Assembly (NCBI GenBank): GCA_000091205.1
Contig: AP006501.2
Reading direction: 5' to 3' (one strand)
Origin: Cyanidioschyzon merolae
Lineage: Eukaryota
Length of the DNA stretch: 64,000 nucleotides
This document shows positions 34,410 through 39,940 of this stretch, piece after piece. A program made the position numbers and the translations under genes. A model generated the notes under the pieces. It did no database searches, was not told where the DNA came from, and was given only the letters and a program-made list of their open reading frames with translations. Within the stretch, counting starts at the first letter, position 1. Every line of letters begins with the position of its first letter.

Positions 34410-34875
34410 TCGCTGGACTTGCGTTCTGATGCGTTTCGCTGGACTCCGCACCTAAAAGGCAGAATATGAGTTTGGTGGCCACCAGCGAGCGTTGCGACTC
34501 GGTTGGAGACCCGCGAGCGGCCAGGGCTACACCAGGCGTGAGCGGTCACCCGTCATCCTCGAAAGGAACATCCAGAAGCTGCAGTCCCTCGAAGAAGCAG
34601 CTGCCTTCCCTATGTTAACACAGGCACTGTAAGCGTGCCAGCGTTTCAGTGTTCCTGTCCCTACAGTAGGACCAGTGTGATTTCCCGTGTGCATGCAGCG
34701 TTCCGATACGGCATGAAGGCGGTGCTAGCCAGAACGCACCGACGCGCATGCTGGCGAGCCAGTGGCTAGCTCGAGCATGCTCCGGGGATTCCAGCACCTC
34801 CCACAAGCACTTGCGGGTCCATGCTAGGCCCTAGTCCCGGTACAGAGTCCAACTAGCGCTGAAGACTCGAATTTT
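34410..34875. repeat. Dispersed repeat family R2, copy a (~465 bp), upstream of the actin-like gene
   Basis: ~70-75% identical over its length to 39470-39940. Example: 'ggcactgtaagcgtgccagcgtttcagtgttcctgtccctacagtaggaccagtgtgatttcccgtgtgcatgc' versus 'gggcactgtaagcctaactatgtcagcgtgtcggggatctcgtttccacagcagggacagtgtgattcccagagtg'. Another shared block runs from '..ctcgagca(tg/ag)(c/t)cc(gg)gga(a)ttccagc(a/g)cctccca(c/cc)a(g)(c/t)acttgc'. Confidence 0.8.
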
Positions 34876-36023
34876 TTTCTTCTTTGGTGTTCCCACTGTT
34901 TTTCTTGGACCATACATTGGAGTCGTCGTGAGCCTTCCCTGTTCATGAGAGAACGATTGGAGGCTATCCTCGGCGAGGAGCCGCTTCGTTCAAACCTGCA
35001 TCGATCTTGCCCAGGTACTCTTGTAATGCTTTGGAGCAGATATAGTGATTCGGTCGAAGCAGATGCGCGTGCTGGGGTGGTATAGTCCAAATGCACACTC
35101 GGCACTTGGTCGCCATCGCATCTATCTAAGGTCCATTTAGTTCACGTCCAAGCGCTAGGGAACCGGGCGTTGGGCTCTGTACCGAGCATCCTGCCATGAT
35201 TCGTATCGTCCTGCTGGCAGCGGTCTGTATACACGAAGCGATTGCGGGGTTCAGGGCGGACCACGAGGCGCCCCAGGTCGCTGCCTGTACGTTACACGTC
35301 CCGAATGCCGTGGTACAGCTGCATGCGGACACCGCGAGGTCCGGCAGGATGTACGATACACGTCCTGAATACCCTGGTACAGCTGAATACGGACATCGCG
35401 GGGTCAGACAGCAGCATGCGCGCGAGCGCTATGCACCTCTTCATCTTGATGATCATCTCGCCCAGATGCTCGATAGCAACCGGCGTCGATACTAGGCAAA
35501 CTCTCCGGTTACAGGCGGCTTTCGGAATTTCCTTCCCATAGGCAAGCGCCACGAGCGGTCGCGGAAACGCTGTGAATGGCCGTGAGTGACCATGACCCGG
35601 AACTTGGATGCATCGATATCCATCTCTCGACGATCTGCCTAGGCACTGACTTGTTGCATTCTTTCAGCGAATGCTTCCGGGCACGGCGCCAGCAATACGA
35701 CAGCATCAATGAGTACGAGCCTCGCGATGCAGTCTTCATAACGATGCCCCTCTTGATCCCTGTATTATGGATCTCCGAGGTCCATCCACTGAAGCTCCGT
35801 TCCGCATTGCCAGCACCGATCTCGATGACTGGCCTTGAAGGTATTTTGAAAAAGCGCGGGGGTGCCGGACCGCCCTCAAACATTCCTCGACAAGCGCGCG
35901 CTCCCGATGCGCACGATCGCTCCAAAGCCGAAACGACGATGTGCGTACTCGCGTTTCTCCTTCGAAACCGGCTGGGACTTGCATGTGCGCTCCCAATCGC
36001 TTGAGCGGCATCATCCCCAGCAT

Positions 36024-37181
36024 ATGATAAGCGACAAACCCGCAGCAGTGGTAGACTTTGGTACAGGCTATGTGAAAGCTGGCTTCGCAGGCGACACGAA
36101 GCCTCGGGTTGTCCTCCCGAACTGTGTCGGACGTCCGTTCGCAAAGGCCGCAGCCGAGCCTTTTGTTGCCCGGAGCGGCGGCAGTGCGCTCGTCGTTGGA
36201 GACCAGGCGCTCAATAAGCGAGCGACAGGCCTCGCCCTCACATACCCGCTGCAGAATGGAATCGTCCAGGACTGGGAAGCCGCAGAAGCCGTATGGTCGC
36301 ATCTCTTCAGCGTGGAACTTGGGATAGACCCGCAACAGCACCCGGTGCTCTGTACCGAGGCTCCACTCAACCCGCGACGCAATCGAGAACAACTCGCAAC
36401 ACTTGTCTTTGAAGCGTTTGGTGTACCTGCTTTCTTCATGGTCGTTCAGGCGGTGCTCGCGCTTTACGCAACCGGTCGAACCACGGGTGCTGTGTTGGAC
36501 CTCGGCGACGGGGTCACCCATGTCGTTCCGGTTTACGACGGATACTGTCTACCACACGCGGTGCGGCGTTTGAACCTCGCCGGACGCGACCTAACAGACT
36601 TGGCAGCAAAGCTTCTCAATAGCGAGTGCGGTTTATCGACGCATAGTCGACCTTCTGTGGTGCGAGAGATCGCACGACAAGTCAAAGAGCAGCATTGTTA
36701 TGTTGCTCCCGATTGGGAAGCCGAGAACCACCGCTTTCAGCAGGATCCAGACGCATTTCTCCGTCGCTATCTCCTTCCTGATGGGCAAGAGTTAGCGTTC
36801 AAAGAGTTGAGGTTTACGGTTCCGGAGTGTTTGTTTCAGCCGGCGCTCATGGGTATGGATGCGCCTGGCATTCACGAGCTGCTCTTGGACGCCATCCAGA
36901 AATGCGACGTCGATCTGCGACGCAGCCTCTACGGCGGTATTGTGCTGAGTGGTGGTTCCAGCCTGTTTCCCGGCTTACCGGAGCGCCTCCACGCTGAGCT
37001 TGCAAAGCAGATTCCCGGCGCTGGGGTCCAAACCAAGATCGTAGCAGGGCCTGATCGCCGGTTTGCGGTGTTTCAGGGTGGTGCAGTGCTTGCCGGACTC
37101 GATACTTTCGAGCAGATGTGGATTACACGTGCCGAATACGATGAATTCGGGCCGCAGATTGTTCATCGAAAATGCCTGTAG
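36024..37181 (+). CDS. Actin-family protein (divergent actin / actin-related protein)
   Basis: 'AAVVDFGTGYVKAGFAGDTKPRVVLPNCVGRP', 'LTYPLQNGIVQDWEAAEAVWSHLF', 'HPVLCTEAPLNPRRNREQLATLVFEAFGVPAFFMVVQAVLALYATGRTTGAVLDLGDGVTHVVPVYDGYCLPHAVRRLNLAGRDLTD' and a C-terminus '...FQGGAVLAGLDTFEQMWITRAEYDEFGPQIVHRKCL' (actin ends IVHRKCF). 385 aa from ATG 36024. It is too divergent for a conventional actin. Confidence 0.88.
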   Translation: MISDKPAAVVDFGTGYVKAGFAGDTKPRVVLPNCVGRPFAKAAAEPFVARSGGSALVVGDQALNKRATGLALTYPLQNGIVQDWEAAEAVWSHLFSVELGIDPQQHPVLCTEAPLNPRRNREQLATLVFEAFGVPAFFMVVQAVLALYATGRTTGAVLDLGDGVTHVVPVYDGYCLPHAVRRLNLAGRDLTDLAAKLLNSECGLSTHSRPSVVREIARQVKEQHCYVAPDWEAENHRFQQDPDAFLRRYLLPDGQELAFKELRFTVPECLFQPALMGMDAPGIHELLLDAIQKCDVDLRRSLYGGIVLSGGSSLFPGLPERLHAELAKQIPGAGVQTKIVAGPDRRFAVFQGGAVLAGLDTFEQMWITRAEYDEFGPQIVHRKCL

Positions 37182-39104: not shown

Positions 39105-39469
39105 GAGCTTGACAAGCTCGTGTTCCCAGCGTCCCAGGGTATGCTGGCTGCGGGATCACGGTGAGCGCAGCGCGCCGCGCAGCGTCGGTGCGGGCGCTGC
39201 ATGTAGACAGAACGGCTTTTCTAGACTGCAGAGGGCGTTGGCTCGAGGGGTGCTTCACCCGACGTAGAGTCGGAATTCATCATCATGATACGATCAGAAA
39301 GTCTGCGGATGCAGGCTTGTCTTCGCTGCACGGCACGCTGGAGAAACTTGGTTGTTAGGATGAATTCTGGGAGCCGCCTCTCTCCTTCGTGCTCCTGCAA
39401 GGAATGCGTTGTTGTTGGTTGGCAATGCGGGTTTGTGGTTGACACCCACCCACAGTGGGTAGGCGCAGA

Positions 39470-39940
39470 AAGCGCACTGTGCCCGTGTACGCATCCGCTT
39501 CGCTGGACCTGCTGCCTAGAAGGTAGCATGTGAGTTTGTTCGCCACTCATGAGCGCTGAGACTCGGTTAGCGGACCATCAGTTGCCAGTGCTACACTCAA
39601 AGTGATTGTCCGGCCTTCGCCTATCACGGTGATGCCCAGCTGCTGGTGTCCTTCAAGCAGCTCGCTGCGCTCCTGCTTCCAGCGCGGGCACTGTAAGCCT
39701 AACTATGTCAGCGTGTCGGGGATCTCGTTTCCACAGCAGGGACAGTGTGATTCCCAGAGTGATTCCAGTGTTCCTATGCGGCTTAGAGCCGGTGCTGCTA
39801 GTCAGAAGCCACCAACGCGGATTTTCGCGAGCCACTGAGTACCTCGAGCAAGTCCCGGGAATTCCAGCGCCTCCCACCAGTACTTGCATGTGTATGCGAG
39901 GTTGTAGTTCCGGTATAGAGTCAAGCCAGCGTCTCGACGC
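39470..39940. repeat. Dispersed repeat family R2, copy b (~470 bp), direct orientation relative to copy a
   Basis: See copy a. Also 'cgcttcgctggacctgctgcctagaaggtagcatgtgagtttgttcgccactcatgagcgctgagactcggttagcggacc' versus 34431 'cgtttcgctggactccgcacctaaaaggcagaatatgagtttggtggccaccagcgagcgttgcgactcggttggagaccc'. Confidence 0.8.

Follow-up and report, generated by a model that had tools for sequence, protein, structure and literature searches.

Direct repeats around an actin-family gene and a prenyltransferase gene in Cyanidioschyzon merolae are very probably remnants of separate insertions of one LINE-type retrotransposon family

The window analyzed here—64,000 nucleotides of contig AP006501.2 from the C. 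merolae assembly GCA_000091205.1—contains an actin-family gene on the plus strand and a plastid prenyltransferase gene on the minus strand, flanked by two stretches, A and B, that resemble each other in direct orientation (Table 1). Both genes had been placed between the repeats by a sequence-only reading, and Pfam bears this out (Actin and UbiA); the absence of gag/pol from the interior, also described there, is likewise borne out, the interior being occupied by two host genes whose synteny extends to sister taxa. The ~465-bp direct repeat claimed around them is real far beyond chance. Its core, 34429-34858 against 39493-39931, is 68.6% identical over 442 columns (blastn, E = 5e-36), and homology reaches ~300 bp further left, pairing 34111-34875 with 39177-39932 (nhmmer, E about 1e-66). 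The proposed identity of 70-75% holds for the best blocks only (71%) and falls to 62% over the full 752 columns, so that A-B identity ranges from 62 to 68% between full alignment and core. In a repeat search of the window, the blocks of A and B are in register at a spacing of 5064-5070.

Table 1. Genes and retrotransposon-derived features in the window
Feature	Position	Strand	Evidence
Third fragment, same LINE 3' region, strongly decayed	21936..22408	-	nhmmer, consensus 88-554, E = 1.7e-27 (weaker in other searches)
Possible fourth fragment, LINE 3'UTR, weak	32069..32273	-	nhmmer, consensus 105-316, E = 1.7e-4 (2e-4 to 5e-4 in other searches)
Element A, old degenerate 5'-truncated LINE copy, ~2 kb	about 33924..35926	-	nhmmer and tblastn
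Part of A homologous to B (left repeat of the sequence-only reading, extended left by ~300 bp)	34111..34875	-	blastn, nhmmer
ORF2 C-terminal domain (Cys motif), pseudo-coding remnant, element A	34267..35076	-	tblastn, frame -2, 40.5% over 279 aa, stops
Reverse-transcriptase remnant, element A	35090..35926	-	tblastn with the RT ORF of copy L028 (E = 1e-33) and with consensus ORF2
Actin-related protein gene, host gene outside any element	36024..37181	+	Pfam Actin, E = 6e-118; clusters with C. merolae BAM82975.1
Homogentisate prenyltransferase (UbiA family) gene, host gene	37800..39104	-	Pfam UbiA; exact match to BAM82976.1 / XP_005539012.1, C. merolae 10D
Element B, younger LINE fragment truncated at both ends	39183..39934	-	nhmmer, consensus 214-962, E = 1e-191
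ORF2 C-terminal domain, pseudo-coding, element B, with CPCC..ET..C Cys motif	39358..39933	-	tblastn, aa489-679, 83% identity, 3 stops

What kind of element do the repeats come from? A near-full-length copy of their family is ~4.2 kb long and comprises a reverse transcriptase (RT), a C-terminal Cys-motif domain, a 3'UTR of ~390 nt, and a short poly(A). An ORF adjoining the repeat matches Pfam RVT_1 (E = 3e-22; a second RVT_1 match has E = 1.4e-22). The consensus of 13 copies carries a 679-aa ORF (ORF2) that extends from the RT across the A/B region, with a CPC..ET..C motif in it; its solved-structure (PDB) matches are R2 and LINE-1 ORF2 proteins only. The A/B-region part of this ORF aligns with the C terminus of an independent RT protein, P0147, at 32% identity over 95 aa (E = 2e-11), and the Cys motif—HCPCY..ET..Y....C in the consensus ORF, CPCC..ET in the near-full-length copy L033—aligns with CPCC..ETLDH....C in P0147, which has a weak zf-RVT match. 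Judged by these alignments, the family encodes a predicted Cys-His motif domain C-terminal to the RT.

The family copies have an A-rich 3' end in common, and their 5' ends are cut off at various points, as in LINEs: at least nine loci begin with a T5-8 run (antisense), while the 5' cut-offs fall at consensus 1062, 1325, 1699, 2130, and about 4240. Variable 5' cut-offs combined with a common 3' end would be the product of target-primed reverse transcription. Self-comparison of L033 revealed no repeats, whether internal or terminal. In its RVT_1 RT, the Cys motif after it, the A-rich 3' end, 5' truncation, and the lack of terminal repeats, the family thus resembles LINE-1 and R2-type elements; it differs from them in that the ORFs of two near-full-length copies, L028 and L033, gave no Pfam match to an endonuclease domain (APE or RLE). 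Because no such domain was recognized in these copies, the family may be atypical, or the two copies may be defective, perhaps internally deleted. By eye, the string SWNICG resembles the start of an APE domain.

Element A has its sense on the window's minus strand, with the 3' (poly-A) end to the left and the truncated 5' end to the right, and lies in the intergenic space from which a conserved 173-aa gene and the actin-like gene diverge. Consensus positions 75-1424 align with 33978-35321 (E = 1e-121) and 1379-1919 with 35338-35890 (E = 3e-49) by nhmmer. In tblastn, consensus ORF2 aa157-413 matches 35926-35090 and aa418-679 matches 35076-34267; identity is 37-40%, and the matches are interrupted by a frameshift and numerous stops (E = 2e-72). 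Only inspection by eye assigns 33924-33977 to A, a stretch that includes a T5 run at about 33924-33928. A 64-nt tandem duplication is present at 35286-35411, inside the RT remnant.

Missing from element B are the final ~215 nt of the 3'UTR, poly-A end included, and all sequence 5' of ORF2 aa489. The identity of B is 90.3% to the family consensus and 86-90% to the dispersed copies found in 20 metagenome contigs. The region common to A and B consists of the ORF2 C terminus and part of the 3'UTR. Both had first been read as noncoding, with tblastx showing stops in all six frames; the family consensus overturned this, identifying the slightly better minus-strand frame as decayed ORF2 C terminus. 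The patchy conservation and few indels are probably a trace of coding constraint that once acted on the active source elements, with neutral decay setting in afterwards.

Two further fragments, one of them only possible, bring the number in the window to four within 18 kb, denser than the published 26 RT-bearing elements per 16.5 Mb suggests. A 45-nt motif (..ACGGCTTTGCCATAC..GGGCGTCGGCTCGAGG) that recurs in the window and in the sister-taxon locus L004 was considered as a promoter element and dropped, the motif being part of the LINE 3'UTR.

How are A and B related to each other? A 27-nt block common to both occurs in 25 metagenome contigs. Clustering these by left flank gives 11 groups, of which two are the A and B loci and nine are other loci. 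The family's copy number is low to moderate, not very high, by a count drawn from metagenomes that may mix strains rather than from one genome. Copy A is 64.6% identical to the consensus and 62% identical to B; the Jukes-Cantor distances (A to consensus, 0.48; B to consensus, 0.10; A to B, 0.53) are roughly additive through the consensus. Because identity to B is 86-90% for at least nine dispersed copies and only 62-68% for A, we regard the two as independent insertions of different ages. Very probably, then, A and B are decayed 3' portions of separate insertions of one C. merolae non-LTR (LINE-type) family, and their shared orientation and the bracketing of two genes are coincidental. Element A would be an old insertion between the 173-aa gene and the actin-like gene that has kept ~2 kb, including RT remnants; element B would be more recent, a fragment upstream of the prenyltransferase gene that lost its poly(A) end later. 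As B has no poly(A) end, its origin by retrotransposition is inferred from its relatives.

Differences between strains are concentrated in copy B, which holds 30/97 and 58/90 of all differences. Local hypermutation or diversification of B was rejected, the variant bases being present in paralogous copies (27/30 and 47/55). What looks like hypervariability is instead due either to the mixing of paralogues during assembly or to ectopic gene conversion. One sequence, L010, has B's right flank, but its left flank differs and its LINE 3' part is longer; it was treated as a possible assembly chimera or paralogous locus.

Does the bracketed segment have a history of its own? In two sister taxa that lack the repeats, the actin-like gene again neighbors the prenyltransferase gene, and the gene order is kept at the sister-taxon loci L003 and L004. 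The pair is therefore ancestral. The intergenic region upstream of the prenyltransferase gene measures 766 bp in L003, the short ancestral form, vs. 7.8 kb in the window, and no element A homologue was found at the orthologous site in sister taxa. The comparison of sister strains and species that the sequence-only reading had proposed thus returned the same gene order without repeats in the sister taxa, while among five same-species metagenome haplotypes it returned no structural polymorphism at the locus.

The same orientation, similar length, and bracketing of two genes would suit a single event with A and B as its two ends: an LTR pair, what a tandem or segmental duplication left behind, or gene capture by a composite element. 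We give this next to no weight. Direct repeats of a few hundred base pairs bracketing a few kilobases do recall LTR pairs or solo LTRs, but the two copies here are not most closely related to one another, no gag/pol remnants lie between them, no target-site duplications (TSDs) were found outside A or B, and A runs on rightward into RT remnants that are absent from B. Moreover, the near-full-length family copy is without terminal repeats, and LTR elements are reported to be absent from C. merolae (Nozaki et al. 2007, PMC1955436), so the LTR-like arrangement once suggested does not stand. Among younger copies, there is one weak 8-bp TSD candidate (GCGTCGCG, L011-type locus), which does not abut the element. 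Segmental duplication is excluded because B is much closer to copies elsewhere than to A, and homology is not limited to the two local copies. Capture of a gene cassette is excluded because the two-gene pair is adjacent in repeat-free sister taxa, the wider gene order being ancestral as well, and nothing points to a recombination hotspot, since all strain-level haplotypes that span both copies have the same 5066-bp spacing. Of the options offered by the sequence-only reading, the dispersed family was essentially right, although the copies here are 3' fragments of a non-LTR retrotransposon rather than of LTR type. That reading had also named what would speak against a structural role for the bracket: a very high-copy family whose copies meet here by density, with neither TSDs nor structural polymorphism. 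The dispersed family and both absences at this locus were found; very high copy number was not.

A different origin, in which mobile DNA plays no part and the repeats are paralogous genes for structured noncoding RNAs or conserved regulatory modules, would fit the patchy blocks, the few indels at ~65% identity, and the absence of a long ORF in either copy. Yet a reading frame, intact in the consensus of the family, accounts for the blocks, and the orthologous sites in sister taxa show no conservation. No Rfam family scored above its gathering score in the window (33600-40600 gave chance-level subthreshold matches only), and ARAGORN found no tRNAs there. The idea was dropped because the coding-frame explanation sufficed, and we consider it extremely improbable. 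Co-option of retrotransposon fragments seems less remote, if still quite unlikely: B would serve as promoter/5'UTR of the prenyltransferase gene and A as that of the 173-aa gene, perhaps as a general habit of the family upstream of co-oriented genes. A distance of 79 bp separates B from the start codon of the prenyltransferase gene, where it replaces a short ancestral intergenic region. Of 13 independent loci that could be assessed, 12 have the 3' end of the element directed at the start of a gene in the same orientation, with 39-1577 bp between poly(A) end and gene start. Against this, A and B show stop-riddled, neutral-looking decay, and the sequence is missing from the orthologous promoter regions of sister taxa. 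The orientation bias, for which the binomial P is about 0.002 against a 50:50 expectation, could come from survivorship in a compact genome and is marginal (P about 0.04) against a null that confines insertions to promoter-containing gaps.

Separate insertions of one non-LTR family agree with what is recorded for C. merolae, whose non-LTR retroelement content is already known: all 26 class I elements are non-LTR-like (PMC1955436). A claim that dispersed repeats make up 72% of the genome (PMC11050394) carries no weight in this reading. The family's RT is 80-84% identical to the C. merolae 10D class I retroelement proteins P0136 and P0137, annotated "retroelement, alive." Organism, non-LTR character, small copy number, and mostly defective copies are shared with that set; A and B differ in being truncated and stop-riddled, and B would fall outside the count of 26 RT-bearing elements because it has no RT.

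The biological weight of these findings is small, and what they remove is a false lead, that of a gene cassette or LTR-like bracket. For practice, low-identity direct repeats in C. merolae should be checked against a retroelement consensus before they are read structurally, and B-like copies draw paralogous sequence into metagenome assemblies, thereby mimicking hypervariable loci. The family's orientation bias relative to genes is the sole item that merits follow-up. It is conceivable, if on the unlikely side, that an endonuclease-less LINE family integrates preferentially and in fixed orientation just upstream of protein-coding genes—a "safe-haven" or promoter targeting—and that B-like fragments might now be promoter or 5'UTR sequence. 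At this locus, the extra intergenic DNA of C. merolae relative to the sister genus Cyanidiococcus contains decayed copies of mobile elements.

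What are the two direct repeats that bracket an actin-family gene and a prenyltransferase gene in this window? Self-blastn aligned 34429-34858 with 39493-39931 at 68.6% identity over 442 columns (E=5e-36), and a repeat search placed the blocks of the left (A) and right (B) copies in register, 5064-5070 apart. The direct repeat claimed in the sequence-only reading is therefore real, with a misplaced left limit: nhmmer stretched the homology to 34111-34875 versus 39177-39932 (E about 1e-66), about 300 bp farther left. Of the two proteins encoded between the copies, the 434-aa prenyltransferase is identical to BAM82976.1 / XP_005539012.1 from Cyanidioschyzon merolae 10D, and BAM82975.1 clusters with the window's actin-like protein. 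The latter has 424 aa in the 10D annotation (BAM82975.1), 384 aa in sister taxa, and 385 aa in one metagenome gene call. The 39 extra annotated codons (35907-36023) would begin within the truncated 5' edge of A (end 35926), and the longer N terminus may be an artefact of annotation.

How dispersed is the repeat, and what does it encode? A scan of JGI metagenome contigs with a 27-nt block common to A and B, ATTCCAGCRCCTCCCACMAGYACTTGC, recovered 25 contigs. By left flank these sort into 11 clusters: nine besides the A locus and the B locus. All nonorthologous copies are B-like: across 720-750 bp they share 86-90% identity with B, and with A they share only 66-70% across the core. In window orientation, family copies open with a T5-8 run and reach rightward far past the A/B region (about 1.06, 1.3, 1.7, 2.1, 2.9, and 4.2 kb). 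An opposite-strand ORF in this extension carries Pfam RVT_1 (E=3e-22); 10D proteins annotated "retroelement, alive" are homologues, 80-84% identical. The majority-rule consensus of 13 copies holds a 679-aa open frame, running from reverse transcriptase (RT) through the whole A/B region, that bears a Cys motif (CPC..ET..C) and terminates about 390 nt ahead of the poly(A) end. Its solved-structure matches are only R2 and LINE-1 ORF2 proteins, and its C-terminal part aligns over 95 aa, at 32% (E=2e-11), with the C terminus of P0147, a metagenomic RT protein that is unrelated. There are no terminal repeats in the near-full-length copy on contig L033. Together, the RVT_1 ORF, the R2/LINE-1 matches, the consensus ORF, and the lack of terminal repeats show that the family is a non-LTR retrotransposon (LINE). 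Of the defining features of this class, a target-site duplication showed up only as one weak 8-bp candidate that does not abut its element, with none at A or B, and no endonuclease domain was recognised in the two near-full-length copies (~4.2 kb; L028 and L033). Upstream of the RT, these have only a short "IGFASWNICG" string and then a lysine-rich stretch; the family may be without an endonuclease, or both copies may have lost the same internal segment.

On the window's minus strand, the A/B repeat is the C-terminal coding region of ORF2 together with a portion of the 3'UTR. A reading of it as noncoding, from stops in all frames, was rejected: the copies are pseudo-coding. A is an old, 5'-truncated copy of ~2 kb, because the consensus and ORF2 map to it with many stops and a frameshift. 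B retains ORF2 aa489-679 (83% identical, three stops) and nothing 5' of aa489, and its 3'UTR is short of the final ~215 nt. C. merolae is reported to have only 26 class I elements, all non-LTR-like and three with intact RT, and no LTR elements (Nozaki et al. 2007, PMC1955436); A and B are fragments of that known class.

Features of the window and of compared metagenome contigs (window coordinates unless a contig is named)
Feature	Position	Strand	Remark
Element A	33978-35890	-	family consensus 75-1919
A, ORF2 aa418-679	35076-34267	-	37-40% identity, many stops, frameshift
A, RT aa157-413	35926-35090	-	37-40% identity, many stops, frameshift
Possible T5 remnant of A's tail	about 33924		by eye
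Element B	39183-39934	-	family consensus 214-962
Third decayed fragment	21936-22408		consensus match, E=1.7e-27
Possible fourth decayed fragment	32069-32273		consensus match, E=1.7e-4
Near-full-length copy	L028 2649-3636 (within the ~4.2-kb copy)	-
Near-full-length copy	L033 6882-7796 (within the ~4.2-kb copy)	+
Inverted 3'UTR pair	L004 2549-2722 / 4598-4781	- / +	~170 bp, 85% identical
Actin-family ORF	36024-37181	+	385-aa form; between A and B
UbiA-family prenyltransferase ORF	37800-39104	-	between A and B
243-aa ORF	40553-41284	-
Element X	42411-43724	+
Element X	22583-22770; 43345-44013; L028 4242-5358; L008; L024
Old dispersed repeat	30582-31274 vs 48447-49153
Old dispersed repeat	31082-31228 and 48965-49110 vs ~52421-52569		inverted
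Old dispersed repeat	1908-2381 vs 23145-22664		inverted
200-aa ORF	31364-31966
81-bp tandem array	8563-9256		about 8.5 units, 96-97% identical
ORF with the array	8319-9239	-
Tandem duplication	24110-24369		period about 92 bp, 78% identity
Tandem duplication	63740-63908		period about 87 bp, 75% identity

Did the bracketed segment move or duplicate as a unit? The sequence-only reading had proposed LTR-like copies, a duplication, or a captured cassette, and a comparison with sister taxa. We made that comparison with Cyanidiococcus yangmingshanensis (L003) and a related metagenomic taxon (L004). Both share with the window the order Ala-racemase-like, SurE, 173-aa gene, actin-like, prenyltransferase, DEAD helicase, L22, DUF2358, and Suf, and neither has any vestige of the element in the corresponding gaps. 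In L003, the 173-aa gene/actin-like gap measures about 1.1 kb, against about 2.4 kb in the window; for the prenyltransferase/DEAD helicase gap, the figures are 0.77 and 7.8 kb, respectively. The window's extra DNA in the latter opens with B and contains a copy of another multi-copy element (about 42.4-43.7 kb). Over 752 shared columns, identity to the family consensus is 90.3% for B and 64.6% for A, and A and B are 62.2% identical. The Jukes-Cantor distances (0.10, 0.48, and 0.53, respectively) are roughly additive through the consensus; A and B are therefore separate insertions of very different ages. These separate insertions, the lack of terminal repeats in L033, and the ancestral gene order in sister loci whose orthologous gaps have no element refute the cassette, LTR, and duplication readings. 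Nor is there any sign of recombination between the copies, as the A-to-B spacing is 5066 bp in all three same-species haplotypes wholly spanning both (L001, L019, and L025). Each repeat is a decayed fragment, independent of the other, of a non-LTR retrotransposon family that is already known, an ordinary finding.

Same-species hot-spring metagenome contigs match the window closely (L001 and L002 at 98.5-98.9% DNA identity); L016, L019, and L025 have A, B, or both at 97-99.6% identity. Inter-strain differences are concentrated in B, with 30/97 and 58/90 of the total. Variant bases of B are present in paralogous copies in 27/30 and 47/55 cases, so the variation stems from paralogues mixed during assembly or from gene conversion; hypermutation of B is rejected on the same counts. 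One contig (L010 1-1100) matches B on the right flank at 95% identity, differs on the left flank, and carries about 125 bp more LINE 3'UTR than B does; it represents either a chimera assembled through the repeat or a locus paralogous to B's.

Other repeats and ORFs populate these loci. In L004, an inverted pair homologous to a LINE 3'UTR segment brackets the DUF2358 gene, a further host-gene bracketing by family fragments. The 243-aa ORF in the lineage-specific 7-kb prenyltransferase/DEAD helicase insert is kept in same-species metagenome contigs and belongs to no Pfam family; the syntenic sister loci have nothing equivalent. Element X, the second multi-copy element, often adjoins LINE copies; its ORFs have no Pfam match, and its 219-aa ORF, with 57% aa identity to the window copy, has homologues in 182 clusters (90% identity) from hot-spring metagenomes. 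A 3.2-kb interspersed repeat is reported to occur in 253 copies in C. merolae (Nozaki et al. 2007, PMC1955436), and X may be this WSV486-like repeat. Other old dispersed repeats, 63-70% identical, lie in further intergenic gaps. The 200-aa ORF, with relatives 31-48% identical at several metagenome loci, probably belongs to an interspersed element and not to the host's own genes, and the ORF with the 81-bp array may encode a repeat-containing protein. Two short tandem duplications were also seen.

How are the elements oriented relative to genes? Of 13 independent loci that could be assessed, 12 have the 3' (poly(A)) end pointing at a co-oriented gene's start codon, at a distance of 39-1577 bp. 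These 12 are, in the window, A (173-aa gene), B (prenyltransferase gene), and the 21.9-kb fragment (777-aa ORF) and, in metagenomes, L011, L009, L014/L031 (ABC1 kinase), L015, L024, L012, L018, L030 (L32e), and L034 (WD40); the sole exception is an L013-type locus. By our calculation, a binomial comparison with 50:50 gives P of about 0.002, and P is about 0.04 if insertions are merely limited to promoter-containing gaps. The pattern may reflect promoter-proximal, oriented (targeted) integration by this LINE family, or it may be survivorship bias.
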